From an uncultured Magnetococcales bacterium (GTDB lineage Bacteria; Pseudomonadota; Alphaproteobacteria; UBA2136; JAPKEQ01): a stretch of DNA of 64,000 nt. The stretch's first letter is position 1. Each line of letters starts with the position of its first letter. Below are positions 5,844 through 61,643 of this stretch, piece by piece. Below the pieces are notes generated by a model that was given only the letters and a program-made list of their open reading frames with translations, searched no databases and was not told where the DNA came from. Made by a program: the position numbers and the translations under genes. The stretch is taken from assembly GCA_964015495.1 (NCBI GenBank), contig CAXHDG010000006.1:27566-91565 (forward strand), written 5' to 3'.

Positions 5844-5906
5844 ATATGGATTTCATAGGCAATTTCAGGTACATTATCTCTATATAAATGAAAGGTTTTT
5901 CACCCC

Positions 5907-9413: not shown

Positions 9414-9441
9414 AGCCACCCTTCGGGGTGGTTTGTTTTTA
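9414..9441 (+). terminator. Rho-independent terminator
   Basis: Stem CCACCC/GGGTGG with loop TTCG, followed by a T-rich run. Confidence 0.7.
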
Positions 9442-9518
9442 TTCTTGATGCCCTGTATACATAAATGCTATAAAGCCTTATCACATATCTATTTTTTCTT
9501 TTTAAAGGATACCTTCTG

Positions 9519-9812
9519 ATGGAACATCCTGTTTTATTTACGTTTATGGCCTTTTTTACAGCAGCAGGTTCAATGATTGCATTGATCCTTCTGTTAAATG
9601 TGGCAGGCCGTCTATTAAGAATAAAAAGTAATGCGCCCTTGGTAGGGGGCGCAATCGTCTTACTTATAGGAGTGCCTCTTCTTGCAGCTATTGTTTGGAC
9701 CCTCGTTCTTTTTTATACCCTTAGCCCCTACCCTTGGGTAACTCTTGTCTTTTACGTTTTTTTTGCGGCCTTAGGGCTCAAACAGATCAAAAAAGACATA
9801 AAATCCTCTTAA
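9519..9812 (+). CDS. Small integral membrane protein (97 aa, about 3 TM)
   Basis: Hydrophobic stretches run through the whole ORF. No known motif. Confidence 0.5.
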   Translation: MEHPVLFTFMAFFTAAGSMIALILLLNVAGRLLRIKSNAPLVGGAIVLLIGVPLLAAIVWTLVLFYTLSPYPWVTLVFYVFFAALGLKQIKKDIKSS

Positions 9813-9831
9813 TACTTGGAGCTTAAAAACC

Positions 9832-10404
9832 ATGACTCAACCTACAATTTACTTTGCTCACCCTATTTGCGACTATGGCACCCAGAAGGAAGCAGATATC
9901 ATCGCTTTTCTGGAAGGCAAAGGTTACACCGTGGTGAACCCTGCTGATTATCAGGATGCTTTTACTGACTGGCTTAAAGGCGTTCCGCTCAAAGAGCTGG
10001 GCACTGACGCTTCTGAATTTCCAACCTTTGATGCCACCAACAAAATGGCCTTTTGGGTGACACTTGCACAAAGCTGCGACGAATGCGCCTTTTGTGCATT
10101 TGATAGTGATCTTGAAGCTGAAGGTGTGCCTTCTGGTTACCTTGACACCTCTGATAGCGCTTTTCGCAACCGCCCTACTATTCGCATTGGCGCGGGTGTT
10201 TGGAAAGAGGTTGAAAGCTTTTGGCAGGCTAATAAGCTTACCTATTTTATGAGCTACCGAGCTATGATTGACTTTGAAACAGAGGAAGATATTCCTCCGC
10301 ACATATCAATCAGAGCAGCCGGTGAATGGCTAAACTGCTTCACTCTTCTCACCGTGGATCAAACCAGAGCACTCTTGCGTGCCTCTGGCCGCTACGACGG
10401 ATAA
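9832..10404 (+). CDS. Hypothetical protein, paralog A of a tandem pair
   Basis: Shares YFAHPICDYGTQKEADIIAFLEGKG and DSDLEAEGVPSGYL blocks with the next gene. Confidence 0.55.
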   Translation: MTQPTIYFAHPICDYGTQKEADIIAFLEGKGYTVVNPADYQDAFTDWLKGVPLKELGTDASEFPTFDATNKMAFWVTLAQSCDECAFCAFDSDLEAEGVPSGYLDTSDSAFRNRPTIRIGAGVWKEVESFWQANKLTYFMSYRAMIDFETEEDIPPHISIRAAGEWLNCFTLLTVDQTRALLRASGRYDG

Positions 10405-10414
10405 AGGAGGCTTT

Positions 10415-10888
10415 ATGCCCAAACATACCATTCTCTTGGTTCAACCCACCTGCGATTACGGCACTGAAAAAGAGGCCGACATCATCGCTAAAATGCAAAA
10501 AGAAGGCGTAGAGGTCATCAACCTCAATGGCGCCACTCAAAGCATCAGCGAACTTGTTGCACTTTGCGACAAGTGTTGTTTCAGCGGCTTTGATCATGAC
10601 CTTGAAGCTGATGAGGTTCCGAGCGGCTGGCTGAAAAGTGAAGCCGACGGTATCACTATAAGCAGACCTGCGCGGCGCATCCCGTTTGATGTTGCCAGTA
10701 TCGTGGAAGATTTCTACGAAGCTGATAAGCCTGTCTACTATATGGTCTATGAGATCGTTAAAGATAGCGGTCGCATGCTCTTGAAGCAGGTCTTTTCTCT
10801 TGAAGCAGATTCTTGGGACGATGAATATATTCTTCTGGATGAACCTCAAACAGAAGCTCTGCTTGAGGCAGCCACCGAAAACGTCTAA
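10415..10888 (+). CDS. Hypothetical protein, paralog B of a tandem pair
   Basis: LLVQPTCDYGTEKEADIIAKMQKEG and DHDLEADEVPSGWL blocks. ATG 10415 is preceded by an AAGGAGG RBS, so the ORF-track start at 10379 is rejected. Confidence 0.55.
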   Translation: MPKHTILLVQPTCDYGTEKEADIIAKMQKEGVEVINLNGATQSISELVALCDKCCFSGFDHDLEADEVPSGWLKSEADGITISRPARRIPFDVASIVEDFYEADKPVYYMVYEIVKDSGRMLLKQVFSLEADSWDDEYILLDEPQTEALLEAATENV

Positions 10889-46567: not shown

Positions 46568-46590
46568 TGGTGCGTCGAAAGGACTCGAAC
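46568..46590. repeat. Direct repeat of the tRNA-Leu 3' end (distal att-like boundary of the island)
   Basis: TGGTGCGTCGAAAGGACTCGAAC matches TGGTGCCGTCGAAAGGACTCGAAC at 61559-61582, with a single 1-nt gap. Confidence 0.75.
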
Positions 46591-46674: not shown

Positions 46675-49600
46675 CTATCCGACTACTTTCTCATATATAT
46701 GATTTTTAGCGTCTATATACTGATCATAAAAATGCTCAAATAAAGAGGCACACTTTGACATAAAAATATGCTCATCATAGGCATCAGGAAGTTTACTGTC
46801 GCAGATTTCCTCGATAGTATCTCTAACTTTAGCTCTGGAAGATTGTTTCTTCCTCCAGTCATAGACTAACTTTTCCGCTTTGAGCGTCTCTAATAACTCT
46901 TTTGCTGTCTCCTTAACCACCTCGATATCCTTTTTAGACATCTTTGGTTCAGGCTTGGTTAATATATCAAAAAGAACTAATTCTTCCTCAGTTAGGTTTT
47001 CTTTAATGTGCCTATGTTCTTCTGCATCAAGATCTCTTGAGAATTTTACAAGTTCAAGAAATATTTTTTCTAGGTCAATATTACCAGAGTTATAGTCTGC
47101 TATAAGATTTTCAAATCTTTCAAGGTAGCTTTTTCTGTGTTTATTCGCCTCTAGCATGCTTGATAACCTTTTTCCTAGCGAGCTCTTGAGGCTTTCTAAT
47201 AGAGTTCTTTGATTTTCTTTATTGAAGAAGCGCTCTTGCAGTTCCTCAAAATCAATTTTAGCAAGATTGAATGGTGTTGTACCTGTGATTTGGTAGCTAT
47301 CGAGACTAACTGACTCATTGAGCAGCGTTTCCACCCTTTCAGCAAGACCTTCTATTTGCTGTTTGTTAATAGGGGTTTTTGTTATTTCGTATACCTTAGC
47401 TGTTAAGATCGTAACGATCAGGCTTTGCTTTAGGTAGCTTTCGGCTCTAACATCAGGCAATACGGCCTTGAGGGATTTTTGTAGGTGTGAGGTTAATTCT
47501 AAAAACTTCTGTTTTGAATCTTCAGTGTGCAAAATTCGATCAACTGCATCATCAGTCATTTGAATTTTTACAAAGTTATCTTTTTCTACATAAATTTCTT
47601 GAGTACTAATAGATTGCTTAGATAAGTATTCATCCATTTTTTTCGATGATTGACTAAGCATAGTAACAAGTGCCTCTTTATCTTCAACAGGACTGTGTTC
47701 TCCCTCACCACCATTACTAGGGTTGCCATATATGGCTAGTGCTTTTTGTAGAGATTTAAAAATACCTATATAGTCAACAATGATCCCACTAGGCTTCTCA
47801 CCCCATACCCTGTTCGCTCGTGCAATTGTTTGCATAAGCGTATGGTCTTTTAGGATTTTATCGAGATATAGAGTAGAAATTGCGGGAGCATCAAAACCTG
47901 TAATCCACATTGCACATACAAATACAATTCTTAGTGGATCTTCTGGCTTTTTAAACTTAACATCAAGCTCTTCTTTATTGCTTCTTTCCCTATGAGGCTT
48001 AATATCTACGCCTTTTTTCTTAAGCGTTTCTATTTCATTTTGAGCAGAAGAAACAATAACAGCCATGTCTGTTTCTTCCATATATCGTACTTTATCCTCG
48101 ATAGAGGCTTTAATACTTGGGCTACAAGATAAAAGCTGTTTCTTTAAACCATCGATATAAGCTTGCCAATGCAATTTGACTTTATCATGCATTTTAATGG
48201 CTGTGGCTTTATCAATCGCTACATACATAGCCTTGCCCATAAACCCGCGATTCATAAAATGGTCAACTACATCTTTAGCAATGCTGTCTAATCTATGATC
48301 CCTGGTTATTAACTGGTATGTTGAGGCATATTCTTTTTCAAAACGCTCCTCTTCTTCGTCTGTTAAGCCTGCTTCAGAGATAATTTCTTTGATATCTTCT
48401 TCAAGATTGTCATTGATAATTTGGAGGTCTGGTCTACGATTTTCATAAAATAGCTCAACCGTGGCTTTATCCTCTACAGACTCTGCATAGTTATAGGTAC
48501 TAATATAATCTCCAAATACCTCCTTAGTGCGCTCATCACCTCTCATGAGAGGCGTACCAGTAAATGCTAGAAAAGATGCGTTAGGAAGGGCTTTACGCAT
48601 GTTCATTGCCAGGACATTATATTGACTACGGTGTGCTTCATCTGTGATGACAATAATATCACCTCGATCGGAAAGCATTTCGTACTCCTGACCTTTTTCC
48701 TCTGTACCAAATTTTTGAATCATTGTGAATACGTTGCGGTGATCTTCAGTCAAAAGCTTTTTCAAATCAGCTCTATTTTTAGCTCTAACACCTTTTTCTG
48801 TAACGGCACCTGAATTAACAAAATTTTTATAAATTTGGCTATCTAAATCTTCTCGATCAGTGACGATGAGAAACGTCCAATTCCCTGGAATTTTGCGAAG
48901 AATTTTTTGAGTTAAAAAGACCATGGAGAAGCTTTTACCACTTCCTTGAGTATGCCAGAACACGCCAAGCTTTCCATGCTTATTGTCTTTATCTTTAACG
49001 CTTCCAACAGCATCGTTAACTCCGAGAAATTGGTGATTTTTAGCTAAAATCTTTGCTGTACCACCCTTACTGTCCATATATAGGATAAAGTTTTCTATAA
49101 GGTCTAAAAGGTTCCCTTTCTCTAAAGCACCTTTAATCACTGTATCAAGTGAGATAAGGCCCTGCTCACCATCAGAGTTGATTTTTTTCCAATCTGCAAA
49201 GTGCTCCCAAGCGGATGTAATTGTTCCCAGCCTGCTTTCTGTGCCATTAGAGACAACAATAAAAGCGTTATGCCAAAAAGCTTGTGGGATAGCTTCCTTG
49301 TAATGCGTGATGTTGTCTTTGTAGGCATTTATAAGCTGCTTATGCGATGCCTTGAGTTCAATAAAGATAAGAGGAAGCCCGTTAATGAAAATAACCAAAT
49401 CTGCCCTGCAGTTATACATTTCGCCAGATATTTTGAACTGTCGCACAACAAGGAAATCATTATTATCTGGATTTTTCCAGTCAATTACGTTCACAACATC
49501 CTCTGTTTCGATGCCATTTTCATCTTTATAGGAAACAGTAATTCCATCTTTAATAAGCTTGTAGAGCTCTTTGTTTGCTGTAACAGGGTTAAGTGTGCTT

Positions 49601-49842
49601 TTCCCTTCGGAAAGGGCATAAATGGCTGAATCAATCGCCTCAATTGGAATATCAGGATTAATACTGGTTAAAGCATTACGTAACCTAGCAGGTAACACAA
49701 CTTCAGAAGGTATATTACGCTCAAAAAGAGATCCCTCGCCATACGTCTCACTGTTTGCATTCTCAGACGCATAACCCAGCTCTTCAAGCCGCTGTATCAC
49801 AGCAAGCTCTAGCGATTCTTCTGAAAAGTCATTTCTCGTCAT
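46675..49842 (-). CDS. hsdR: Type I restriction enzyme, R subunit
   Basis: 1055 aa with Walker A TQGSGKS and the DEAH box ITDEAHRSQ, in an operon with hsdM/hsdS. Confidence 0.9.
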   Translation of the reverse strand: MTRNDFSEESLELAVIQRLEELGYASENANSETYGEGSLFERNIPSEVVLPARLRNALTSINPDIPIEAIDSAIYALSEGKSTLNPVTANKELYKLIKDGITVSYKDENGIETEDVVNVIDWKNPDNNDFLVVRQFKISGEMYNCRADLVIFINGLPLIFIELKASHKQLINAYKDNITHYKEAIPQAFWHNAFIVVSNGTESRLGTITSAWEHFADWKKINSDGEQGLISLDTVIKGALEKGNLLDLIENFILYMDSKGGTAKILAKNHQFLGVNDAVGSVKDKDNKHGKLGVFWHTQGSGKSFSMVFLTQKILRKIPGNWTFLIVTDREDLDSQIYKNFVNSGAVTEKGVRAKNRADLKKLLTEDHRNVFTMIQKFGTEEKGQEYEMLSDRGDIIVITDEAHRSQYNVLAMNMRKALPNASFLAFTGTPLMRGDERTKEVFGDYISTYNYAESVEDKATVELFYENRRPDLQIINDNLEEDIKEIISEAGLTDEEEERFEKEYASTYQLITRDHRLDSIAKDVVDHFMNRGFMGKAMYVAIDKATAIKMHDKVKLHWQAYIDGLKKQLLSCSPSIKASIEDKVRYMEETDMAVIVSSAQNEIETLKKKGVDIKPHRERSNKEELDVKFKKPEDPLRIVFVCAMWITGFDAPAISTLYLDKILKDHTLMQTIARANRVWGEKPSGIIVDYIGIFKSLQKALAIYGNPSNGGEGEHSPVEDKEALVTMLSQSSKKMDEYLSKQSISTQEIYVEKDNFVKIQMTDDAVDRILHTEDSKQKFLELTSHLQKSLKAVLPDVRAESYLKQSLIVTILTAKVYEITKTPINKQQIEGLAERVETLLNESVSLDSYQITGTTPFNLAKIDFEELQERFFNKENQRTLLESLKSSLGKRLSSMLEANKHRKSYLERFENLIADYNSGNIDLEKIFLELVKFSRDLDAEEHRHIKENLTEEELVLFDILTKPEPKMSKKDIEVVKETAKELLETLKAEKLVYDWRKKQSSRAKVRDTIEEICDSKLPDAYDEHIFMSKCASLFEHFYDQYIDAKNHIYEKVVG

Positions 49843-49858
49843 AATTGATTACCTGTTG

Positions 49859-50731
49859 CTAAGTTCTATCTTCAAAGTAGTGCGTCACGATAAAATTTGC
49901 TAGTGTTTTTGATGTATTTACCGCCAGCAATGCATCTTTCTGCGTCGGTTCAAAAGTAATATTGTGTGAATCGCTCATACCGTGCCTTAAGAGGTTCATA
50001 CCTTGGCCCAGAGTATTAAACCCTTCTTCTAGCTTCTCATACCCCTTCTTAATCTTTAAGTCGAACCCATTAGGTAGCTTTAAAACGTCTAGAACTGTTT
50101 TGAGAAGCTTATCAAAATCCCCTCCATATCTCCCCCTTCTACCAGAGGGAATTTTATCGATTTGGATTTCTCTGAGAATCTGCTCTAGAAGTGAACGAGA
50201 ACTTGTAATGGCTCCTGAATAATCCCCCTCTAATATCCTGCCAACACATTTTTTATTATGTTCAGCAATCAGGTGATGCTGACCTTGCAAGTTCTCAGCA
50301 AAAAGACAATCATAGCTCACTAAACAATCTAGTAATGAATGTATTGAGTAACGTTCTAACGCTTCTACATAGATGATTTCATAATCATCCTCTATAAATG
50401 ATTCATTGATTTTAGCAACCAACTCTTCAGCAAGGTCTGAACAGACTAATATTGAGAGAAAATTTTCGGTAAAAACCCTTAATTCTCCAGTTCCATTCAA
50501 CTCAGATATCTTTAGCTTTGCATAACTGTTTATCTTGAAGTGTTTATTCGCATATAGTTGACTATTTTTTACCTCATCTACGCCTTCAAAAGCTTTGTCA
50601 TAGGTTTCAACCCTAACAGAAGTGCCATTTAAATACTGCTCAAACCCTTTTTTGGTTACATCAAGGCCAAAGCCTTCATCAGTCGTTAAGATTTTTGAAA
50701 GCCTATCAATGGATGCGTAACCTAATAGCAT
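49859..50731 (-). CDS. Abi_C (abortive infection C-terminus) domain protein embedded in the R-M operon
   Basis: The C-terminal half, EGDYSGAITSSRSLLEQILREI...LLRHGMSDSH...ALLAVNTSKTLANFIV, follows the Abi_C consensus pattern. Confidence 0.55.
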   Translation of the reverse strand: MLLGYASIDRLSKILTTDEGFGLDVTKKGFEQYLNGTSVRVETYDKAFEGVDEVKNSQLYANKHFKINSYAKLKISELNGTGELRVFTENFLSILVCSDLAEELVAKINESFIEDDYEIIYVEALERYSIHSLLDCLVSYDCLFAENLQGQHHLIAEHNKKCVGRILEGDYSGAITSSRSLLEQILREIQIDKIPSGRRGRYGGDFDKLLKTVLDVLKLPNGFDLKIKKGYEKLEEGFNTLGQGMNLLRHGMSDSHNITFEPTQKDALLAVNTSKTLANFIVTHYFEDRT

Positions 50732-51936
50732 TACATTTTAATTTCTAGGTTTGAAACGTCTAACTCACCAGAAATAAGCTTAGGTAATAGCATATCTCTA
50801 GTTCTTTCTAGGTTAAAATTACACTCTTTTAATTTATCCATTTGACTCAATAGATCAATGATTTTCAAATTATATTCTTGCTGTAAGTTTTCGCTAGGTA
50901 ATATTATTTCCTTACTTACCAGTTCTGACCAGTGACGTTTATACTCTTTTGTACTCACAAGGCTTGAAATTAAATAATATAAGAATGATGTTGGCATTGA
51001 TGATTTAAGCGGCACAAACGGAATAACATTTGCCCCTACAGAAAATGGCTTGATTAGGATTTGCATTTTACAAGTGTGGTCACCAAATATAATGATAGGG
51101 TTATCAGTGCTGGCGGCTTGGTCAGCCTTATTATTATGATAACCAAGGACATCATTAGTAGACTGGTCAATAACAGGAGTACTGCCAGAACTCCCTACAT
51201 TCTTTTGTGTATATTTCAAGCCCGCAGGTTTTCTTTTTAGAATACCTCCCACACTTTCACACGACCACCCTTCAGGAATAAGCCCAAGTTCAGACCCAAC
51301 AAATTTAGCACGTTCATGACCAGGGAATTTAAAATCAACAAACCAGTGTTTATAAAGTTTTTGCGCCACCTCTTCTAAAATTTGAATGCGCTTGTTGTTA
51401 TTTTCAATCAAATCATCATAAGCCGATAGAACTCCAGCGATTTTATTTTGGATTTTAATATCTTTTGGGTATGATATTTCAAAGCCTTCTAGGGACTCTT
51501 TTGTCAAGGCTTCACGTGTAGCACCACCTTGAGCAATGGATAGTAAACGTTGTTTGTTTTTACTGCTCACTAAAGAGTAATAGGCAAATTTAGAGAGTAT
51601 CTTGTCTTGATTCAACCTAATAATGGCTACATGCTGATTCACACGTGCAGGTAAAGCCTCTTCTGGAACTATACAGCAACGAGCAACTGAAGCTCCTGTA
51701 ATATTAAGCAGGACATCATTTTTCAGAACATTAACATTATCTAATTTTTTCGATTGTTTTTCATCTATACATGCTAAATCGTTCCATTTAAATGAATAAT
51801 CATGAACATTCATACTCCTGATTAAAAATACACCAACTTCCTTATAAGCCCCTTTACCTCCTGTAGGAGTAGCACCACTTCCAATCTTTAACGTTAAGCC
51901 TTTTAAAGTAGATGATTTCCATGCTTGCGTAGGCAT
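50731..51936 (-). CDS. hsdS: Type I restriction-modification specificity subunit
   Basis: 401 aa with two target-recognition halves separated by conserved helical spacers, located between hsdM and hsdR. Confidence 0.85.
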   Translation of the reverse strand: MPTQAWKSSTLKGLTLKIGSGATPTGGKGAYKEVGVFLIRSMNVHDYSFKWNDLACIDEKQSKKLDNVNVLKNDVLLNITGASVARCCIVPEEALPARVNQHVAIIRLNQDKILSKFAYYSLVSSKNKQRLLSIAQGGATREALTKESLEGFEISYPKDIKIQNKIAGVLSAYDDLIENNNKRIQILEEVAQKLYKHWFVDFKFPGHERAKFVGSELGLIPEGWSCESVGGILKRKPAGLKYTQKNVGSSGSTPVIDQSTNDVLGYHNNKADQAASTDNPIIIFGDHTCKMQILIKPFSVGANVIPFVPLKSSMPTSFLYYLISSLVSTKEYKRHWSELVSKEIILPSENLQQEYNLKIIDLLSQMDKLKECNFNLERTRDMLLPKLISGELDVSNLEIKM

Positions 51937-51938
51937 AG

Positions 51939-53510
51939 CTATACCCCCAATAATTTCTTAACATTATGTGAAATCTTACTTTCTAAATCATGTGCGTTTG
52001 AATTTAATCCTAGCAACTCATCATTCAACTCTTTGAGGCGTTCTTCGAAAATGTAATCTTCTTCTTCAGCCTCTGCTACATCCACATAACGGCCAGCGTT
52101 TAAGCTCCAGTCTTGTTTTTCAATAGCTTCTTTATCTACAACCTTACAAAGCCCTGCAATATCCCTGTATTCAAGGTTAGGGAACTCAGCTTCCAAGTCT
52201 TTTTTCTTTGTATGGTTAAACTCTAATGAGTCTTGGTCCCCCCTATAAAGCTTCACAATGTTAGCAATACGCTCCACATGAGCTTCTGTGAACTCTCTAT
52301 GCGCCCTATCAACCTGTTTGTAAATTTCACGTACATCTAAGAATAAAGTCTTATCAGCTCTGTCCGTACGTGGTTTACCATTATCAAAGAACCAGAGTGT
52401 ACAAGGGAGGGTTACATTGTGGAAGAAGTTTGAACCGACAGACACCATGACATCAACCACTCCACTTTGAATGATTTTCTTACGTATTTCTTGCTCTGAC
52501 TGCCTTGCATCACTTGCTGAGTTCGGCATAACAAAACCTGCACGGCCATCCTCAGCTAGTGCTGTATAAAAATCCTGAATCCACAGATAGTTTGCATTAT
52601 CAACCTTTGGAATACCCAGACTATAACGAGGGTCACCCTTTACACGGTCTTTATCGATACCACTTACGTTAAATGGAGGATTGGCCATTACAAAGTTAAA
52701 CTTACCAACACTGTTGTGCATATCCTCATAGAAGGTGTTACCCTGCTTGATGTCACCCTCTAAGCCGTGAACAGCAAGGTTCATTTTACCAAGCTTCACC
52801 GTTTCTTCTGTTTTCTCCTGCCCATAAATAGTGATTTTATCATTAGGGTTGAATTTATGACGCTTAACAAATTCAGCGGACTGAACAAACATACCACCCG
52901 AACCACAAGCAGGGTCAAATACTGAGCCTTGTATGGGCTTAAGAATTTCTACAATAAGACGAACAATAGAGGTTGGAGTGAAAAATTCACCGCCACGTTG
53001 ACCTTCAGCTCCAGCAAACTTGCCAAGGAAGTATTCATAGATCTTACCAAAAGCATCTCCTTCAAGTTCTCCAATTTTCATTTCAGAGAACGTTTTAAGG
53101 AGTGCTATAAGGAGTTCTTTTTCAATACGGAGGTAGTTTTTAGGTAGAACATCTTTCAATGAAGGGTTACCAGATTCAATCTTACTCATAGCTTCATTGA
53201 TGATTTTACCGATATTATCACTTTCAGTGAGTGATCGCAGGTAAGAAAAGCGAGCTTCTTCAGGTAGGTATAACACACCCTCTGCATGGTACTTAACCTT
53301 TTCATCGGTTGCAGCCCGACGGCGGCTTGATACTTTTTCGCCTGCTTTATCAAACTTCTCTTTAGCTTGGGTAAACTTAAAGTCTGCATATCTCAGGAAG
53401 ATCAGCCCTAAAACAGGTGTTGAGAATTCTGCAGTTTTAAGATTAGATGCAGCTCTTAGCTGATTAGCAGCCGCCCACAAATCATTCTTTACTTTATTGA
53501 TATCACTCAT
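51939..53510 (-). CDS. hsdM: Type I restriction-modification N6-adenine DNA methyltransferase subunit
   Basis: Motif [12 protein letters not shown] and motif IV MANPPFN. Confidence 0.9.
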
Positions 53511-53757: not shown

Positions 53758-54549
53758 TTATTCCATAACCTCTTTAATATATTCCCTATGAATCGCATGA
53801 CCATCAATCGTCCATGAGTTGGGAACATTAATCTCATCATCAGTATAAGGGATGCCAAAGTAGTTATAGTACTCTTCTAATAATAGGTAGAACGTTCGGT
53901 TCATTTCACCTTTGGGGTAAGGAATAAAAATCGCTTTCTTTTTGGCAAGAGTATATAGAGCATCCTCAATATAATGGATTTTGCCTGCCACATCATCGAA
54001 ATGCTCAGGGTTTTCTATAGGCCTCATAATCGCATCGAAAATATCATCATATGAAAGACTGTTAAACCATTCAGATAGGTTAAACTTTTTAATAACATGC
54101 CTTACAAAGGCATCTCCCTGACTTGGTTTATTGGTAGCGCTGCAATATCGAGGCGTAACCAAACCATATCGCTCATCTTCAGTGATATCAAAACTCTGTT
54201 TGCTAGGAATAGCAATATCTTCCTTAGAGTATTCAATGCCATAAAAAATATAAAATTCTTCCAGAATGCATTTATATAGTAACTGAACTGCACCTTGTCC
54301 ATCAGGGATATACACGCCCCGCATGCCATGATACCTATGGAAAGTCTCTTCTAGGTCGCTCACATGATCAGAAATATCCAGAAAATCTTCAGCACCAATA
54401 GGTAAGAAAAATTCAACGAGCTCAACTATCTCATCAAAACCCACCCCCAACTGTTGCTCTAATTTAAACTTTATAACAATGTGCTCTGCGAAGTCTAAAA
54501 TACTGTCTAATTGCGCCTTTTTATCTTCTGGTATATCTCCGTATTTCAT
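53758..54549 (-). CDS. Hypothetical protein with internal duplication, co-transcribed downstream of the radical-SAM gene
   Basis: It starts 15 nt after the rSAM gene stop. The two halves share the pattern F-D-------E----------IP-------L----LEE-Y--YGI-Y---DI--P. Confidence 0.5.
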   Translation of the reverse strand: MKYGDIPEDKKAQLDSILDFAEHIVIKFKLEQQLGVGFDEIVELVEFFLPIGAEDFLDISDHVSDLEETFHRYHGMRGVYIPDGQGAVQLLYKCILEEFYIFYGIEYSKEDIAIPSKQSFDITEDERYGLVTPRYCSATNKPSQGDAFVRHVIKKFNLSEWFNSLSYDDIFDAIMRPIENPEHFDDVAGKIHYIEDALYTLAKKKAIFIPYPKGEMNRTFYLLLEEYYNYFGIPYTDDEINVPNSWTIDGHAIHREYIKEVME

Positions 54550-54564
54550 ACTCTTTCCCTACTC

Positions 54565-55527
54565 TTACTGCTCATCTATTAAAAATTTTATCTTTGATCG
54601 GGATTTAATAGCTGGCGCCACTTGCATAAGGTCATCTTTTACAGAGTCTTTTATGTGCCCGGATACCAACATAGGCTCTTTAACCAACTCACCATCGCTG
54701 TTTTCATAAAAGTTCTCAGGGCTGGTGATTTGTCCAAATGCATCTACCATGACATAGTGATTTTTGCGCATGGCATTAGTTTTTGCTTGCACCTCAAAGC
54801 GATAGTGATTTTGCCTAATTAAATCTAAGGCAGATAAAAAATGGTCATCACTTAGCATGAAGTGCTTTCGGTTTTTATAACCCAACTCTCCAATAGGCAT
54901 ATACTGAAAGAGCTGAACGTTTTTAACGCTTGAATACCTATTTAAAATATCTAGTATTTTATATACTCCGTGAACATTCCCTTTGTGAACCACGGTATTA
55001 ATATCTAATGGTACACCATCCTTTTCAGCCATCTCTATAATTTGGAGAGACTCCTCAAATAAAGACTTTCTACCCTTTCTAAAATATGAAACAGATTCTT
55101 GGTCCCAACCATCTAGAGGAATTGATAAGCAATCAACTAATCTAGATAGGTCCTTAAGGCTAACAGCAGGCATATCCATCTTAACTGGGTAAATTGCTTT
55201 ATTTGCTCCCAAAAAGACAGTACCAACAGTATCAACCTTAACCCGCAGCCCTAAATCCTTACAAAGTTTAATAACTTCAATCACGTGCGGATAAGTAAAG
55301 GGGTCGCCTCCACATAAAGTGACCTGACCTAAAGGTTGTTTAGCCATAACCTTTCTTAGAAATTTGGAAATTTCATCAACAGTGAGTATTGAACTAGAGC
55401 TACTGCACCCCTTTAAACCCTTAAGATTTTCTTTGGGAAAATTAAAATAGCATCCTTTACAAACAACAGGGCAAGACAAGCCAATTGCTAAGGATATTTT
55501 ATTAAAAATTATATCATCTAAAACCAT
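54565..55527 (-). CDS. Radical SAM enzyme, viperin-like (candidate prokaryotic viperin)
   Basis: CPVVCKGC (CxxxCxxC) and a GGDPF SAM block. The region after the core aligns by eye with human viperin (INTVVHKGNV, LFQYMPIGE, FMLSDDHF, KTNAMRKNHYVMVDAFG). The MVLDD start is preferred over the ORF-track start at 55632. Confidence 0.6.
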   Translation of the reverse strand: MVLDDIIFNKISLAIGLSCPVVCKGCYFNFPKENLKGLKGCSSSSSILTVDEISKFLRKVMAKQPLGQVTLCGGDPFTYPHVIEVIKLCKDLGLRVKVDTVGTVFLGANKAIYPVKMDMPAVSLKDLSRLVDCLSIPLDGWDQESVSYFRKGRKSLFEESLQIIEMAEKDGVPLDINTVVHKGNVHGVYKILDILNRYSSVKNVQLFQYMPIGELGYKNRKHFMLSDDHFLSALDLIRQNHYRFEVQAKTNAMRKNHYVMVDAFGQITSPENFYENSDGELVKEPMLVSGHIKDSVKDDLMQVAPAIKSRSKIKFLIDEQ

Positions 55528-55537
55528 AACTTGATAA

Positions 55538-55570
55538 CTTCCGCCCAAAAGCTTGCTTTTCAAACGGAAG
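55538..55570. promoter_or_regulatory. Nested inverted repeat in the divergent rSAM/HIT-like intergenic region (candidate operator or 5'-UTR hairpin)
   Basis: CTTCCG (55538-43)/CGGAAG (55565-70) enclose AAAAGC-TT-GCTTTT (55547-60). Confidence 0.35.
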
Positions 55571-55626
55571 GGATGGTATACCGTACCTGGATGATATTCA
55601 AGAAAAAACAACCTAAAGTAATAAGC

Positions 55627-56247
55627 ATGCAATACTTTGATGTAACAAAACTGGAAGATCTACCTCCCCTTCAGGAAGGCTATCGATATTTTGACTTTAT
55701 TGGAGGAACAAAAGAGTACAGATGTTTCCGTGCACCAATAGATCTGTCTAGAGGCACTTTTATGAACCAGCATGGTCACCTTCTTGATGAGTGCGTTCAG
55801 CCTATTTATAAACATAATGGTATCACAATTTCGCAAGATACTTCATGTCCTTTACCAGGGTTTTATATAGTTAGCCCCGACAAACAATTTAGATCAATTG
55901 ATGAAGTTGATCCCATTACCCACCAAAGACTTTCTTTCCTAACCCGTGAAATTAGAAAATTAATGAGAGAACACCTAAATATCCAGTTCACACATATTTA
56001 CTATGAAGAAAAAGCCAATAAAGGCTGTCATGTACACTACTGGATATTACCGATTAATGATATTAAGCAGAACCCAAGGCTCTACAAATTTGATGTTAAG
56101 GACTATATGGACCAGTTTACATTCAGAGATAATAAACAAACTATTTTAGATTTTAATAAAAAGATGAAAGACGCTATCGAGAAAAGCAATCTCTACCAGA
56201 GAGATCAAATCCTTGAGAAAGGCCTGAATCAGCTGGAAATTTTTTAA
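55627..56247 (+). CDS. HIT-superfamily-like protein with a degenerate histidine triad
   Basis: GCHVHYWILP sits where HIT proteins carry H-x-H-x-H-x-x, and an upstream LPGFYIVSP strand resembles the nucleotide-binding strand. ATG 55627 is preferred. Confidence 0.4.
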   Translation: MQYFDVTKLEDLPPLQEGYRYFDFIGGTKEYRCFRAPIDLSRGTFMNQHGHLLDECVQPIYKHNGITISQDTSCPLPGFYIVSPDKQFRSIDEVDPITHQRLSFLTREIRKLMREHLNIQFTHIYYEEKANKGCHVHYWILPINDIKQNPRLYKFDVKDYMDQFTFRDNKQTILDFNKKMKDAIEKSNLYQRDQILEKGLNQLEIF

Positions 56248-56831
56248 GAAATTTCTTCATAGTTTCCATTTAAGTCTGCCCATATTGCATGACCATCTTT
56301 TAAAGGGTAGTAGTTCTGCTCTCTTAACTTACCTATAAACTCATCAACAAAATGCGGAACGATCGAAAACGGTAAAATACCGTAACCAGATGTGTTTAAA
56401 AGTTTTATATTATTTTCATCCATACCAATATCCCCTAACGCCTGAATATCCAGCCCAAGCACAGAACTTCCTGCAGAGACCCCAATATAAAGGCCGCCGC
56501 CTTTTAAAAATTTTTGGATATTTTCTTTGGTATGTTTGTTTTGGAAACTCTTAAGGAGCCTGAAGGTATTTCCACCGTTTACATACAAGATATTAAACTG
56601 AGTCAAATCTACTAAAGGATCATTTTCAAAATCTATAAACTGTACGCCCTGCACACCAAAACTCGTGAGCTGCTCTTTCGCAAGCATGGCCCACTCGTTT
56701 TTTTCTTTTTTTGATGATGCTGTTGTCACAATAGCTGCTCGACCTTGTACCCTCAATTGCACAAGCTGTTTTGCGTGATTATAAACACTCGCATGAGAAA
56801 ACCCTGTTGATGTTAAGAGTATGTTTTGCAA
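56244..56831 (-). CDS. Peptidase S51 (dipeptidase E/PepE-like)
   Basis: ILYVNGGNTFRLLK, the nucleophile block LYIGVSAGS, and VPHF matching PepE Ser/His positions. Confidence 0.7.
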   Translation of the reverse strand: MQNILLTSTGFSHASVYNHAKQLVQLRVQGRAAIVTTASSKKEKNEWAMLAKEQLTSFGVQGVQFIDFENDPLVDLTQFNILYVNGGNTFRLLKSFQNKHTKENIQKFLKGGGLYIGVSAGSSVLGLDIQALGDIGMDENNIKLLNTSGYGILPFSIVPHFVDEFIGKLREQNYYPLKDGHAIWADLNGNYEEIS

Positions 56832-56863
56832 CTTAACGTTCCCTTCTTTGGACTTTATCTAAC

Positions 56864-56892
56864 TTGACACTTATAACGAACTCTCTTAGATT
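56864..56892 (+). promoter_or_regulatory. Candidate sigma70-type promoter for the AlaRS-like/kinase operon
   Basis: TTGACA (56864-69), a 17-nt spacer, then TAGATT (56887-92). Confidence 0.35.
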
Positions 56893-56945
56893 GAGCAAAC
56901 TTTCTTAACTTCTCGTACCATTTTCATACTAATAAGGGGCCGACA

Positions 56946-57917
56946 ATGGCTCAACTATCCAAGCAACAGGCGCACAAGTGCCTTGAGCAAGCCTGCTCTC
57001 AATTTAGAACCTTCTTTGAAGGTAAAAATTATCAACACCGAAAATCAGCTCTTATGAGCTCTGGTATTGACCCAACCGTTAGGTTTGTTGGGTCACATAT
57101 GAACACACTTAAAGCAGATATGAATAACAGAGACATACATTCACCTATCTACATTGTTCAGCCCTGCTTAAAAACAAAAAATATTAGCTCTTATGAGGAT
57201 CCTCACTTTTACCCACGCTATGGATCGTATTATATGAGCTTAGGATTACTGGCACCAGCAAACTGCCTTGAGCAGATTTGTTTAGACACCCATGAGTACT
57301 TACTTTCATGCAAGAGCATTCATGATCAAAACATCTCTTATTTGGTATCTTCATCAGATACGGAGATGCTTACCGCATTAAAGCGCTCCCTTCCGAAAGG
57401 TATCATTCATGTAGATACTCTCCCTGAACACAAATATGATCACCAATACGGCATTAATCGTGTTTCAGGTAGAGTTATCAGAGTCATGCTCCAAAATGAC
57501 TCTGATAAAGAAGCAGAGATGATCGCAGTCATTGCTTTACTCACACATGAAGAGGAAGGGCATCTTTTTACAGAGGCCACAATTGGTATTGCTTCTATTC
57601 TTAAGCTCACCGAAAATCTGAGCAATGTTATGGATGTTTATCCTCTCTCACCTCTTGGAAATTCCTGTCTTCATTTGCAGGTCGAGGATATTCTGGTTGC
57701 AACTATCGAGCTTTATCAAGAAGGTCTCCGGCCTTCCAATAAGCACAATAGGAACAGGATACTCAAAAAGTATATCAAGCACCTTTTTGCACTTTGTGAG
57801 AAACTGCAGCTCACGCCAGAGAGTATCAAAAACAGAATTGTGGAATATGAGGCTTCAACAGGACAGCAGGAAACTATTTCAGCTACTCTTATTGAAGACC
57901 TTTTTAAAGCGAAATAA
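56946..57917 (+). CDS. Stand-alone, highly divergent alanyl-tRNA synthetase catalytic-core homolog (323 aa)
   Basis: Collinear by eye with the E. coli AlaRS N-terminal domain. F--FFE-K, IDPTVRFVGSHMN (vs NDPTLLFTNAGMN), QPCLK (vs QRCVR) and GLRPSNKHNRNRILKKYIK (vs GVMPSNENRGYVLRRIIRR) line up. No tRNA-binding, editing or C-Ala domains are present. Confidence 0.5.
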   Translation: MAQLSKQQAHKCLEQACSQFRTFFEGKNYQHRKSALMSSGIDPTVRFVGSHMNTLKADMNNRDIHSPIYIVQPCLKTKNISSYEDPHFYPRYGSYYMSLGLLAPANCLEQICLDTHEYLLSCKSIHDQNISYLVSSSDTEMLTALKRSLPKGIIHVDTLPEHKYDHQYGINRVSGRVIRVMLQNDSDKEAEMIAVIALLTHEEEGHLFTEATIGIASILKLTENLSNVMDVYPLSPLGNSCLHLQVEDILVATIELYQEGLRPSNKHNRNRILKKYIKHLFALCEKLQLTPESIKNRIVEYEASTGQQETISATLIEDLFKAK

Positions 57918-57990
57918 AGCTTACCCTTTTATGGGTAGGCTTTTTTACTTTTTCATATATGATATACCTCTACTTAAAGGGGCAAGAAAG

Positions 57991-58635
57991 ATGAATTCAG
58001 CACTATTTATTGTTATTGAGGGTATGGATGGTGTTGGCAAAACAACGACAATTCAACAACTCGCTTATAATATGAATGCCAAAGTATTAAGGCATATGGA
58101 TTCTCATGAACTTGAAACATTAGAGCAGCTTATTTCAGACAAGGCACCATCTGCTGACATTCATAACTTTGCACTTGAATGCTTACACAAAAAGTCTGAA
58201 GAAGTTAACAAGCTTAACCAAAACGATACTCCTGTTATCATGGATAGATACATCTATTCAGCAATCGCGTATTACCTGGCAAATGCTAAACTTATTGACG
58301 AGCCTATTAAAGCATTTAATATTGATGCCCTACAGCTCAGACAGCCCGACGTTGCATTTTATCTATATTTAGACTCTGATTCCCACCTAAAAAGAATCCA
58401 GGAAAGAGGCACACAAAACGATGCCAATGACCAAAAAATTATTTCTAACAACCTATACCGAGATCAACTCAGGCAATACTTTTTAAAGTTTACAGATGAA
58501 CAGCACTTCAAAGCAGTCGATATAGAAAACAAAACAGTCCAAGAAGTATGCAAAGAAATAGAAATCCAATCACTTGAAATTAAGCCCAATGAACAGCATA
58601 CTAACCTCGCTGGCTTAGGGAAATACTATGAATAA
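57991..58635 (+). CDS. Thymidylate kinase family nucleotide kinase (Tmk/CMPK2-like)
   Basis: P-loop IVIEGMDGVGKTT and a DRYIYSAIAY block. ATG 57991 has an AAAGGGG RBS, and the long ORF-track N-extension (57625) is rejected. Confidence 0.7.
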   Translation: MNSALFIVIEGMDGVGKTTTIQQLAYNMNAKVLRHMDSHELETLEQLISDKAPSADIHNFALECLHKKSEEVNKLNQNDTPVIMDRYIYSAIAYYLANAKLIDEPIKAFNIDALQLRQPDVAFYLYLDSDSHLKRIQERGTQNDANDQKIISNNLYRDQLRQYFLKFTDEQHFKAVDIENKTVQEVCKEIEIQSLEIKPNEQHTNLAGLGKYYE

Positions 58636-58650
58636 AGAAAAGTACTTTGC

Positions 58651-58872
58651 ATGACAGAGCAAGATAGAAGAAAAGCGCACCAGCCCACAGATGCTAAGCT
58701 CTACAAAGAGTTTAAAACCGGTAAGCGCATTAAGCACGAGCGCCGATCTGACGAACTCTCTCGTTTGCAAGAAATTCATTCACAAAAAGTGCTCTGGTGG
58801 AAAGTCATCACAGCTTGCTTTGCGCTCAATATTATTTTTATTGGGCTCGCTATATGGGGAATAAAAAATTGA
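58651..58872 (+). CDS. Small single-TM protein (73 aa)
   Basis: A basic N-terminal half followed by one C-terminal TM helix. It overlaps the next gene's start. Confidence 0.4.
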   Translation: MTEQDRRKAHQPTDAKLYKEFKTGKRIKHERRSDELSRLQEIHSQKVLWWKVITACFALNIIFIGLAIWGIKN

Positions 58873-60542
58873 TTGATAAAAAGTATCTGGGCTGGATACA
58901 AGCATTTTTTAGTGTCCTTGTTCTTTGGGGACTTAACAATGTAATGATTGGGTATAGCGCCCAAATTTTAGATGCCAACTATATCCTTTATACATGCTGT
59001 GCTTTTGCAAGCTGCTCTTTTACATTACTCCTGATCAGCGGCCCAGGGAAACTTGGTAAAGAAACCATACGCTCTATTGATACGTGGCTATTTGGGTTGG
59101 TCATGCTCCTTGGATATATTGTAACCCTCGCACTCTTTTCTATTGTTTCATCAACAGAAGGATCCCTCTTGCAGCGCATAAGCCTATTTTTTGGGATATT
59201 TGCAAGTTGGATTTTCTTACACCGTTCGCCAACGTTCAATCAACTTGCAGGACTTTTACTTGTTCTTATTGGTGTTGCAATTATATGCAAAGATATACCA
59301 GAAGAGTCTCGAGGCATTGTTTACTTTTTAATGCTTCTAGAAGGTATGATTCTCAGTGCTCGCATGTTCATTGCCGAAATGCACAGACCACACAACCACG
59401 CCCTCAACTCTAACGAAGGCTATCGTTCTAGATGCCGTGTTGTTGGCTTTGTCATGTTTATCATGAGCATGTTTTTCATGGCCGTTTCTTTTATTATCTC
59501 TGTTCTTAATACTGTCGCCCCTCTGCCTTTTGAATCTAATATCATCCCTACACTCAGCTCGATGACACATACCCCTACACTTGTTGCAGGCATTGTTGCA
59601 GGTGTATGCCTTGTAGCCCCTCTTCGTGTTATCGAATTTTCAAGCGCCTCTCTCATTAAAACCGAAAATTTTTTAGCGGTGGCAGCCCTTTCATCTCTTG
59701 CAACGTACTTCTGGGAGTGGCTGCTTTACCCTATTACAGGCATGCCCCTTAAAAACTTTAACAGTGGAGAGATGATTGCAATTGCCCTTATCACTTTTGG
59801 CTCAATGATTGCTGTTTTAAAACACAGTAAAGCAAAAGATGCATCATGGAAGAATCATTTAGAAATAAAACCTCATGACCCTGAGTTGATATCAGATAGC
59901 AGGGATATTTTTGCGGAAACGCTCACGCACTTTGATGGGTCCCTTAAAAAGGCATCAGATGCGCTTAAACTTCCCCAAAGCACATTAAAGATTATTCTAC
60001 AAGACCATGAACGTATTTATGCCTTCAAAAACCTTGATAAAATACAAAGACACTTCAGACAGAATGTTGCTGGACAAGATGCTCTGACAGGTCTTCTAAA
60101 TAGAAATGCCTTTAAAAGGCTCTCAACAGACCTCTTAGACACATGCAAGAGCTGCACACTTCTTTATATCGACCTAGATAAGTTCAAGCCGGTTAATGAT
60201 ACATACGGCCATGATGCAGGTGATGCCATTCTTACCCAAACAGCGATCCGTCTGCAAAAACAGCTCCCTGAAGGCTCGCTAATTTGCCGCATGGGTGGAG
60301 ATGAGTTTTGCGCCATCCTCCCTCATAAGGCAACACAAGCAAAACACATCACGCCGTTACAAAAAGCAATACAAGCTCCTGTAGCCATTCAAGGCATCTC
60401 AGAAGAGATAAGTGTCGGTGCTTCTGTCGGCATTGCACACTACCCTAAAGATGGAGAGACACTAAATGACCTTATCTCGCATGCTGATGAAGGTATGTAC
60501 GGGGTTAAGCATTCAAGAGACACAAAAACCCGTAAGGCCTAA
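58854..60542 (+). CDS. Membrane diguanylate cyclase: EamA/DMT-like ~10-TM domain fused to GGDEF
   Basis: The C-terminal domain has LTGLLNRNAF, DLDKFKPVNDTYGHDAGD and RMGGDEFCAIL. The N-terminal half is polytopic. The start at 58854 (MGNKK) is inferred. Confidence 0.75.
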   Translation: MGNKKLIDKKYLGWIQAFFSVLVLWGLNNVMIGYSAQILDANYILYTCCAFASCSFTLLLISGPGKLGKETIRSIDTWLFGLVMLLGYIVTLALFSIVSSTEGSLLQRISLFFGIFASWIFLHRSPTFNQLAGLLLVLIGVAIICKDIPEESRGIVYFLMLLEGMILSARMFIAEMHRPHNHALNSNEGYRSRCRVVGFVMFIMSMFFMAVSFIISVLNTVAPLPFESNIIPTLSSMTHTPTLVAGIVAGVCLVAPLRVIEFSSASLIKTENFLAVAALSSLATYFWEWLLYPITGMPLKNFNSGEMIAIALITFGSMIAVLKHSKAKDASWKNHLEIKPHDPELISDSRDIFAETLTHFDGSLKKASDALKLPQSTLKIILQDHERIYAFKNLDKIQRHFRQNVAGQDALTGLLNRNAFKRLSTDLLDTCKSCTLLYIDLDKFKPVNDTYGHDAGDAILTQTAIRLQKQLPEGSLICRMGGDEFCAILPHKATQAKHITPLQKAIQAPVAIQGISEEISVGASVGIAHYPKDGETLNDLISHADEGMYGVKHSRDTKTRKA

Positions 60543-60544: not shown

Positions 60545-61422
60545 CTACCTACAGTGCCATAAAAGCTGATAGTATTTAATAGCTTCAGGGTTAGGCTGAG
60601 GAAGACGCCCTTCAACTAAGCACATATAGCTACTTTCGGGTGGAGAGAGCTGAGGTATAGACTCTTCTCTTATGCCGTAGTTTAGCACAAACTGCTTCCA
60701 CGCTTCTTTTAAGTTTGAAACCCTTTGTAGGAATATCAACCCTTCTTCTATTTCCTGCTCTCGTGCAATTGTGTATAGAAAGAGGTTTTCTCTTATCTCA
60801 CATGCAACAATCATAGAGACAAGTGCCCCTTTTAAATCTGCTGCGGGGTTGTAGCTGACTCGACCCGTCACGATGCCATAACGAAATATTGCTGTGCATA
60901 TTTGTAGAATACGTTGAGAAATCTCAGTCGTACCCTTCTTCTCTATTGCCCTTATAAGATTCAAAACATCCATAGGCTTTATAGTTTGAATAGGCATAGC
61001 GCCAAGTTTAGGTACTAAGTGCAGCTCTATTCGGCGCCAAATTTTAGCAACATGCTTCTCTGACCATTTATTTAAGCTGTGTCGTGCCACTCCTTAACAA
61101 TAAGTGAGAATGAGTTTCCTGCCGCTATCACAGCATCAGTCTTTTCTTCTTTTCTGTGCTGAGTAGGGTTAATGCCTTTATCTAGTAATTTACGTGCTTC
61201 AAATTTTTTCTCTCTTGTTTCTTGCAGGGATATTTCTGGGTACTTCCCAAATGCAATAAGCTTCTCACTTCCATGAAAGTAATATTTCATTCGCCATAGC
61301 ATTGAACCACTCTTATTAATCTGGATAAAGGTACCATCACAATCAAACAGCTTGTAGGGATTTTCTTTTGCTTTAGCACTTTTGATAGCAATATTCGTTA
61401 GCGGCATAGGGCTACCTTTCAT
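60545..61422 (-). pseudogene. P4-type tyrosine integrase remnant (frameshifted, catalytic domain missing)
   Basis: 61072-61422 encodes the DUF4102 arm-binding domain (PYKLFDCDG...LWRMKYYF). 60545-61090 continues in another frame through the SAM-like core-binding domain up to NPAADLKGAL, then switches to unrelated sequence. No R-HxxR-Y catalytic residues are present. Confidence 0.7.
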
Positions 61423-61558
61423 TTGACACCCCTAACAGCACCCCTAAATGAGTGAGCTTGCAATAGATAGCAAGAGATGCCAAAAGACAGGATCCTTGGC
61501 TCTTACTGTTGTTTTATATTGATTTTTAGATTTTATGAGACTTAGAGAGACCAATTAT

Positions 61559-61643
61559 TGGTGCCGTCGAAAGGACTCGAACCTTCACACCTTGCGGCAC
61601 TAGCACCTCATGCTAGCGTGTCTACCAATTCCACCACGACGGC
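61559..61643 (-). tRNA. tRNA-Leu (GAG), type II with a long variable arm
   Basis: Hand-folded: acceptor GCCGTCG/CGACGGC, anticodon stem CTAGC/GCTAG with loop ATGAGGT, long variable arm, T-arm GAAGG-TTCGAGT-CCTTT and an encoded CCA. Confidence 0.85.

Follow-up and report, generated by a model that had tools for sequence, protein, structure and literature searches.

The window analysed here is a 64,000-nucleotide stretch of DNA from an uncultured Magnetococcales bacterium (GenBank assembly GCA_964015495.1, contig CAXHDG010000006.1, positions 27,566 to 91,565). Positions 53,758 to 60,542 of the window hold a cluster of eight genes, designated A to H in map order, four of which encode a viperin-like radical S-adenosylmethionine (SAM) enzyme (B), a weakly HIT-like protein (C), an S51 peptidase (D) and a truncated protein resembling alanyl-tRNA synthetase (AlaRS) (E). 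The preferred interpretation, which we regard as plausible and somewhat short of probable, is that B, C, D and E form one module that makes and handles an amino-acid-bearing, radical-modified nucleotide or nucleoside, with self-protection. It draws on gene content, family assignments, fold similarity, a gene fusion and recurrent co-occurrence, all of which are observed, and its proposed chemistry would be closer to the logic of ascamycin and microcin C than to canonical defence by prokaryotic viperins (pVips). The gene coordinates and orientations of an initial annotation, made from the sequence and a list of its orfs, were all confirmed by the orf listing and by family scans. The four genes are as follows.

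54565-55527, minus strand: gene B, viperin-like radical-SAM enzyme, 320 amino acids (aa) (Pfam, profile and fold)
55627-56247, plus strand: gene C, weakly HIT-like protein, 206 aa (gene caller start 55627)
56244-56831, minus strand: gene D, S51 peptidase, 195 aa from a TTG start (Pfam)
56946-57917, plus strand: gene E, truncated AlaRS-like protein, 323 aa (family profile)

Gene C is divergent from B and convergent with D, the tails of C and D overlapping by 4 nucleotides (nt). In public gene calls for the same contig, B is started at Met61 in one record, so that the Fe-S cysteines are lost, and the S51 peptidase is shortened by 48 residues; the longer forms of B and D fit their family profiles from position 1.

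The radical-SAM enzyme is a viperin relative

Protein B carries the motifs CPVVCKGC (CX3CX2C, residues 19-26) and GGDPF (residues 73-77) and matches Pfam Radical_SAM (PF04055) at 5e-12. The initial annotation had lined up several further blocks of B with vertebrate viperin by eye, and these come up again in a HMMER alignment with the Trichoderma virens viperin-like enzyme 9dfu, in which INTVVHKGNV, LFQYMPIGE...FMLSDDHF and KTNAMRKNHYVMVDAFG of B fall on the corresponding viperin blocks. When a profile of 40 family members was searched against the PDB, the nine best matches were viperins (E=1e-10, 43-44 bits), aligned nearly end to end as far as viperin residue ~262, and the next were PqqE, SkfB and MoaA, aligned over the core only. 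An AlphaFold model of B built from the family alignment has a predicted local distance difference test score (pLDDT) of 89, and a Foldseek search of the PDB with this model ranks viperins in the first 24 places (E=5.7e-14 to 3e-11, target-normalised TM-score 0.65-0.77), followed by DesII and SkfB at ~4e-11. The description of B as viperin-like is upheld by these searches, in which it did not group with PFL-AE, NrdG-AE or QueE.

The description does not extend to B being a viperin proper. On the NCBIfam viperin model NF038283, which has a curated cut-off of 180 bits, B scores 56.4 bits, equal to its scores on unrelated radical-SAM models (TIGR04053, 56.9 bits; AhbD, 56.6 bits). The nucleotide-binding residues of viperin, in mouse numbering, are N77/H79, K120, K220, K247 and Y302. 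In the B-family alignment, read by eye, the tyrosine of Y-L-L-I-D is invariant, a lysine before V-T-L-x-G-G-D-P is present in most members and replaced by glutamine in B of the window, and neither the N-x-H motif nor the basic residues at the K220 and K247 positions are conserved. By alignment, B appears to lack the N-x-H motif and some of the triphosphate-binding lysines. Because B lies below the viperin threshold and appears to lack some of the nucleotide-binding residues, its substrate need not be a nucleoside triphosphate (NTP). Judged by its sequence and modelled fold, B is a viperin relative in a separate family of ~300-aa proteins and not a canonical viperin.

About 90 homologues of B, of ~300 aa, are present in the protein collection searched, and none of them is named viperin by its source; the closest, at locus L009/L010, is 41% identical. 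A GTDB scan with B of the window alone matched only a Bdellovibrionaceae gene (26% identity). No relative of B or C was found among PLSDB plasmids and no relative of B among INPHARED phages, and IMG/VR yielded only radical-SAM genes that are 21-24% identical to B. In Alphaproteobacteria (L012, L014, L018-L020), B-family members without C adjoin a 1250-aa LuxR/NB-ARC/TPR STAND protein and a conserved 200-aa protein that has no family match.

The HIT-like protein is coupled to the radical-SAM enzyme

In species-representative genomes fetched with a B-family pattern, a homologue of C adjoins B in 23 of 34 loci, and with further metagenome loci the two occur together in 33 fetched loci, the end of C often lying a few bases from the start of B. 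The hosts are Alphaproteobacteria, Chlamydiae, Verrucomicrobia, Oligoflexia, Clostridia, a Mollicutes-like metagenome-assembled genome (MAG), Bacteroidales and the actinomycetes Mycobacterium, Streptomyces and Kitasatospora. At L147 (9398-10867), C and B are fused as one orf of 490 aa, in which the motifs of C come first and CX3CX2C and GGDPL follow; after the fusion come two tandem paralogues of tyrosyl-tRNA synthetase (TyrRS). At four other loci (L037, L150, L151, L152), C has an N-terminal HAD phosphatase fused to it. B and C are tightly coupled.

The HIT-like character given to C by the initial annotation recurs in several comparisons but is weak, and it falls short of the Pfam threshold. 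A Pfam scan found no family specific to C, which scores 14.3 bits on Pfam HIT (E=0.065) against a cut-off of 21.5; the same model matches four of 17 family members weakly (best E=0.039). Among the five best matches of the C-family profile in the PDB, four are HIT proteins, at weak E-values of 0.09-0.5, and an hhalign comparison with HIT sequences placed the motif in register at a probability of only 13%. The motif reads CHVHYWILP in the window and H-phi-W-phi-L-P in the family, departing from the H-phi-H-phi-H-phi-phi of HIT proteins. Of the triad histidines, only the central one, which is the nucleotidyl acceptor in HIT enzymes, is conserved; it is nearly invariant, occurring in at least 90% of the 17 members that were aligned. 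A structure model of C from its single sequence is unusable (pLDDT 49) and the Foldseek matches of that model are meaningless.

In a Chlamydiae MAG (L021, 9006-9350), a 115-aa orf with weak similarity to NHLP/Frankia peptides, which are like precursors of ribosomally made peptides that are modified post-translationally, lies directly upstream of the C/B pair. Its sequence hints that some versions of B/C may act on a peptide.

The AlaRS-like protein and the S51 peptidase

Protein E covers the AlaRS catalytic domain and runs into the first part of the helical domain; the editing and C-Ala domains are missing. Its single sequence is marginal in a Pfam search (E=0.042) and gives only noise against the PDB, and the profile of 11 family members has 12 PDB matches, every one an AlaRS (best E=5.4e-9), in agreement with the AlaRS-core identity proposed at the outset. 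By hhalign, the family matches E. coli AlaRS 1-343 at a probability of 96.6% over 262 columns, corresponding to AlaRS residues 4-317. A conserved glutamate occupies the position of AlaRS Asp235, the motif-3 arginine has been lost, and E keeps the beginning of the helix by which AlaRS recognises tRNA (GLRPSNKHNRNRILKKY versus G-x-MPSNE-x-RGYVLRRI). On these alignments, the E family derives genuinely from AlaRS and is non-canonical.

The family is small, with three relatives in an indexed search and 14 more in species-representative genomes. At 14-15 of the 17 loci outside the window, E belongs to a tightly conserved and apparently uncharacterised cassette of an HD protein, a methyltransferase, E, an S66 (MccF-type) peptidase and an AsnA/AsnRS-like protein; the cassette (L005, L048-L061; for example L054, 8527-13169) has no radical-SAM gene and is found in candidate phyla radiation bacteria, gammaproteobacterial MAGs, a Calothrix plasmid and Draconibacterium. 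One E-family locus, a contig of 19,951 bp (L051), has a GNAT gene, and another (L005) is surrounded by conflict-system genes, among them CBASS-E2, Fic and BrxR-like ones. The loci at which E joins the B/C pair are the window, L006 and L152. The gene order in L006 is the end of a glycyl-tRNA synthetase (GlyRS) gene, E and C, followed by a TLC-like transporter and B on the opposite strand. In L009/L010, the sequence of which is the same as L142, E is convergent with the closest homologue of B. In L152, which comes from an independent metagenome, a single operon encodes the HAD-C fusion, B, an E-like protein (hhalign probability of 99.9%) and an S51 peptidase. The linkages noted in the window therefore recur in other genomes: C with B at 33 loci, the AlaRS-like gene with them in L006 and L152, and the S51 gene in L152.

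The assignment of D to the S51 peptidases was borne out by a score of 85.9 bits on Pfam Peptidase_S51 (PF03575), of which the cut-off is 23.9, and D has the nucleophile motif GVSAGS and His160. On the PepE model NF003642 it scores 70.8 bits, under the cut-off of 156. The structures that phmmer ranked closest to D were Lmo0363 (6e-11) and PepE (1.6e-10), and B. subtilis PepE (6a4t), which belongs to MccG clade V, reached only 1.4e-6. E. coli PepE gives no protection from microcin C (PMC9239234). Since D is by these E-values nearer to PepE and Lmo0363 and E. coli PepE is not protective, the analogy of D to MccG is one of function and not a family assignment. The S51 gene of L152 is only distantly related to D, so an S51 enzyme has seemingly been recruited twice.

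Aminoacyl-tRNA synthetase genes accompany the B/C pair

An aminoacyl-tRNA synthetase (aaRS) or aaRS-like gene lies within the fetched stretch at 24 of the 33 loci that have C; among the nine that lack one, several are short contigs. The types represented are prolyl-tRNA synthetase (ProRS), TyrRS, the Asp/Asn/Lys type, GlyRS and AlaRS-like (E-like). ProRS scores 721 bits, above the equivalog cut-off, in Streptomyces and Kitasatospora, where the cassette runs HIT-like protein, GT4 glycosyltransferase, radical-SAM enzyme, PIG-L, ProRS and methyltransferase, and a short divergent ProRS occurs in one Oligoflexia MAG and in one Clostridia MAG. TyrRS is often present as two tandem paralogues and the Asp/Asn/Lys-type synthetase as a pair, and the C-terminus of a GlyRS occurs as well. 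A threonyl-tRNA synthetase (ThrRS) is encoded at a Paenibacillus B locus that has no C. In the B loci of Bacillus and Paenibacillus, a CYTH gene precedes B and an NDK gene directly follows it. Genes for RelA/SpoT-type and HD proteins, HAD phosphatases and an APH-like kinase lie near B, and the sister loci also hold MFS and ABC exporters, glycosyltransferases, PIG-L deacetylases, a Mur-ligase-like enzyme, a pyridoxal phosphate-dependent decarboxylase, a thiamine diphosphate enzyme and a phosphoenolpyruvate mutase. By gene content, the sister loci look like small-molecule biosynthetic clusters more than pVip-type defence loci.

The synthetase genes could be read in another way, as signs that B and C build a modified nucleoside which E aminoacylates on tRNA, the adjoining synthetases reflecting the tRNA concerned. 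A tRNA or nucleotide hypermodification of this kind has a precedent in GluQRS (YadB), a truncated glutamyl-tRNA synthetase paralogue that aminoacylates queuosine in tRNA-Asp, and it would suit both the single aaRS specificity found next to B/C at each locus and the retention by E of the start of the AlaRS tRNA-recognition helix. We consider it quite improbable, however, as the module is patchy and island-borne, aaRS genes occur as tandem paralogues, the sister loci encode glycosyltransferases, PIG-L deacetylases and exporters together with peptidases from classes known for antibiotic immunity, and no locus is tied to a known tRNA-modification pathway.

Proposed function of the module

If B, C, D and E form a module for an amino-acid-bearing nucleotide or nucleoside, the pathway might begin with the supply of an NTP, which would be aided in the window by the Tmk-family kinase of the island (gene F). 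With a [4Fe-4S] cluster and SAM, B would carry out viperin-type radical chemistry on the sugar, for which the simplest guess is abstraction of the 4′-hydrogen and 3′-dehydration. The conserved histidine of C would then serve as nucleotidyl acceptor while C trims the triphosphate or else passes on the modified nucleoside monophosphate, and in other genomes the fused HAD phosphatase would complete the dephosphorylation. E would add a small amino acid, taken from aminoacyl-tRNA as by the ascamycin enzyme AcmF or activated as an adenylate, to give a product that would mimic an aminoacyl-adenylate or the aminoacyl end of tRNA. Finally, D would cleave the aminoacyl-nucleotide bond, comparably to MccG in the case of microcin C, either as self-protection of the producer or as a processing step. 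By analogy, the product is likely to act like an antibiotic that inhibits a tRNA synthetase or translation, against competitors and possibly against phages. The initial annotation had suggested a locus for an aminoacylated or otherwise modified nucleotide that would serve either anti-phage defence or a nucleotide antibiotic with self-immunity; the aminoacylated nucleotide and the self-immunity have gained from the known immunity classes (PMC9239234) and from AcmF (PMC12945691), and the defensive role has been weakened by the biosynthetic appearance of the sister loci.

Several points weigh against this interpretation. The score of B on the viperin model is far below the curated cut-off, and the family does not conserve the N-x-H motif or the basic residues at two lysine positions. 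The relation of C to HIT proteins is weak by the Pfam score, and its structure model contributes nothing. For D, phmmer places Lmo0363 and PepE ahead of the MccG-clade PepE of B. subtilis, and the PepE of E. coli is not protective. A full-length extra AlaRS is missing from the window, as is any obvious dedicated exporter, and the presence of a Type I restriction-modification system and an Abi_C gene on the same island favours defence. The synthetases of the sister loci could be biosynthetic ligases instead of resistant targets. The roles ascribed to the B and C families, neither of which has a characterised member, are extrapolated from sequence relationships.

A wider proposition, which must be called doubtful, is that the B/C pair defines a class of biosynthetic clusters, widespread and as yet uncharacterised, that convert ordinary nucleotides into radical-modified, aminoacylated mimics of aminoacyl-adenylates, and that the co-encoded aaRS or aaRS-like gene (Pro, Tyr, Thr, Gly, Asp/Asn/Lys or Ala-like) names both the amino acid and the target. 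Should it be true, there would be a modular family of natural tRNA-synthetase inhibitors distributed from Streptomyces to Chlamydiae, the window would represent it by an AlaRS-like form with S51 immunity on a mobile island, and the aaRS partnership would offer a target prediction for each cluster and so a route to new tRNA-synthetase inhibitors. The tRNA synthetases are a validated class of antibiotic targets. To our knowledge, viperin-type chemistry is known only as the production of antiviral chain terminators; under the preferred interpretation, B would be the first viperin relative to act as a building-block enzyme in small-molecule synthesis, and the HIT-like family C and the truncated AlaRS-like family E would be assigned a testable role.

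The island and its other genes

The remaining features of the cluster and the borders of the island in which it lies are as follows.

46573-46590, strand not assigned: left att-like border, where the 3′ end of tRNA-Leu is repeated distally, identical over 18 nt to 61565-61582
53758-54549, minus strand: gene A, duplicated protein, 263 aa (orf and self-alignment)
57916-57943, plus strand: terminator-like hairpin between E and the Tmk gene, with an 11-bp stem and a T run (consensus scan only)
57991-58635, plus strand: gene F, Tmk-family kinase, 214 aa (TIGR00041)
58651-58872, plus strand: gene G, small membrane protein, 73 aa (orf listing)
ending at 60542, plus strand: gene H, EamA-GGDEF protein, 562-581 aa (family scans)
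60545-61643, minus strand: remnant of a P4-type integrase together with tRNA-Leu(GAG), forming the right island border (Pfam, ARAGORN)
61559-61643: tRNA-Leu(GAG) (ARAGORN)

The initial annotation had placed the gene set inside a tRNA-Leu island and beside a Type I restriction-modification and Abi_C module, and the repeat of the tRNA 3′ end does bracket ~15 kb that contain both. The repeat is exact over 18 nt and matches at 23 of 24 positions with one indel, its second copy (61565-61582) falling inside the tRNA-Leu gene. The G+C content is 0.36-0.40 within the island and ~0.45 in the flanks. A neighbouring topoisomerase gene of this alphaproteobacterial host is 98% identical to that of MAG ANT-120, whose next relative stands at 52%. 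The integrase (60545-61422) is split into two orfs that match Pfam Arm-DNA-bind_3 and Phage_int_M only; as it lacks a catalytic domain, the island is probably immobile now. Within the same island, positions 46675-53510 encode all parts of a Type I restriction-modification system (hsdR, hsdS, hsdM), with an Abi_C-domain gene inserted between hsdR and hsdS.

Gene A lies 15 nt downstream of B. The internal duplication that had been attributed to its product is real, since the two halves align by BLASTP (E=1e-14, 25% identity), and A has no match in Pfam, NCBIfam or PADLOC. The sole relative found, P0096, is encoded after a gene for a CYTH (triphosphate tunnel) protein at L045, a locus of a related MAG, where the two (9426-10771) are near a SUKH immunity-type gene and a few kb from orthologues of G and H (4014-5887). 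These orthologues are 86% (G) and 56% (H) identical to the proteins of the window, and B, C, D, E and F are all missing from L045. Because G and H occur there without the module, they are lineage genes that probably lie outside it, and for the same reason H was rejected as a candidate exporter of the module.

Gene F passes the cut-off of TIGR00041 (91.5 bits against 83.25), has the P-loop GMDGVGKTT and matches the PADLOC models PDC-M51B (1e-22) and VakA (3e-16). Its membership of the kinase family is thereby established as annotated, and the analogy that had been drawn to the viperin/CMPK2 gene pair fails, as a Tmk homologue is missing beside B, C and E at every other locus fetched; from this distribution, the kinase may be the island's own nucleotide supply. 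Genes E to H had been annotated as one divergent operon, and all four are present. The strong putative terminator hairpin at 57916-57943 means that an uninterrupted operon from E to F is not assured, and G and H, being lineage genes, are doubtful members of the module. A promoter scan gave matches no commoner than in shuffled sequence.

The surroundings of the cluster raise the question of whether it is a pVip-type anti-phage system in which B makes a chain-terminating 3′-deoxy-3′,4′-didehydro-nucleotide from Tmk-supplied NTPs during infection, and C, D and E tune, mask or detoxify it for the host. The cluster is on a mobile island and directly adjoins the restriction-modification system and Abi_C; B matches the PADLOC pVip models (PDLC02903/02904) at 2e-18, as the kinase does VakA and PDC-M51B; the E-family locus L005 has its CBASS-E2, Fic and BrxR-like neighbours; and a close homologue of B (P0003) stands alone, adjoining a recombinase/ORF6N element. 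The PADLOC result, for which a check had been proposed initially, is nevertheless divided, positive for B and F and negative for C, D and E. All 40 sampled members of the B family, including those in the Streptomyces cassettes with ProRS and glycosyltransferase genes, match the pVip models and no other PADLOC model, so the match is a trait of the family and not evidence of defence here; by the same token, some pVip calls in surveys may be biosynthetic enzymes. With B at 56 bits against a viperin cut-off of 180, a kinase that is not a conserved partner and sister loci that look biosynthetic, with exporters and extra aaRS genes, a defensive function is unlikely.

It might also be supposed that the cluster is a mosaic of unrelated island cargo genes with no joint function. 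Four transcription directions within 5 kb, the hairpin that separates E from the Tmk gene, and the lack of conservation of Tmk, the duplicated protein and the EamA-GGDEF pair with the radical-SAM gene would be in keeping with this. For the cluster as a whole it is hardly credible in view of the adjacency of B and C in 33 loci and their fusion in one, the single operon of C, B, E and an S51 gene in L152, the conjunction of C, B and E in L006 and the convergence of B and E in L009/L010. Co-occurrence disfavours a mosaic for the four genes B to E; a mosaic is possible for A and for F to H.

Comparison with known systems

The initial annotation had held the linkage of these genes to be undescribed, and no description of the gene set was found in the open-access text that was searched. 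It is not described in a paper on mining for tRNA deacylases (PMC13149037). The 4′-thiothymidine cluster of Photorhabdus, with a radical-SAM enzyme, a nucleoside kinase and an NTPase, was set aside as a comparison because it has no HIT-like or aaRS-like gene (PMC12691670).

With viperins and pVips, B shares a radical-SAM core with CX3CX2C and GG(D/E)P, a C-terminal extension that aligns to that of viperins in the W-x-x-F-Q, F-x-I-S-D-x-x-F and Y-L-L-I-D blocks, and the proximity of nucleotide kinases or phosphatases. It differs in being paired, and once fused, with a HIT-like protein, and in being linked to tRNA-synthetase genes, whereas viperins occur alone or with a CMPK-type kinase.

Resistant copies of the target aaRS are encoded in antibiotic clusters such as those of albomycin (seryl-tRNA synthetase), agrocin 84 (leucyl-tRNA synthetase) and mupirocin (isoleucyl-tRNA synthetase). 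The operons of the sister loci similarly include an additional synthetase of the ProRS, ThrRS, TyrRS, GlyRS or Asp/Asn/Lys type, whereas the window has the truncated AlaRS-like gene only.

Four classes of enzymes are known to give immunity to aminoacyl-nucleotides of the microcin C type, namely GNAT (MccE2), S66 (MccF), HIT (MccH) and S51 (MccG) (PMC9239234). Members or relatives of each are found near aaRS-like genes in the loci compared here: S51 in the window and L152, S66 in 15 E loci, GNAT in L051 and the HIT-like C. The module would share with microcin C the logic of a toxic aminoacyl-nucleotide combined with enzymatic self-protection. It differs in that no ThiF-family protein (the MccB nucleotidyltransferase) was found by Pfam or NCBIfam among the eight cluster proteins and no MccA peptide, the precursor that ends in Asn, in the window, and, with regard to MccH, in that C looks like a biosynthetic partner of the radical-SAM enzyme, with which it can be fused, and not like a stand-alone phosphoramidase.

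In ascamycin biosynthesis, the truncated AlaRS-like protein AcmF uses Ala-tRNA as the source of alanine for transfer onto a nucleoside sulfamate; it is reported to carry the substitution D232E and to be without most of the ATP- and alanine-binding residues, and a full AlaRS, AcmD, is encoded in the same cluster (PMC12945691). E, with 323 aa, is shorter than AcmF, the window has no sulfamate genes, and the nucleoside part would come from the radical-SAM/HIT-like pair instead. E is nevertheless like AcmF in being a truncated AlaRS-like protein in a nucleoside-modifying cluster that has lost canonical class II residues, and the alanine-binding aspartate has undergone an acidic exchange in both, to the conserved glutamate of the E family and by the reported D232E in AcmF. 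The pairing of AcmD with AcmF, too, has its counterpart in the sister loci, where a full aaRS is paired with a second aaRS-like gene.

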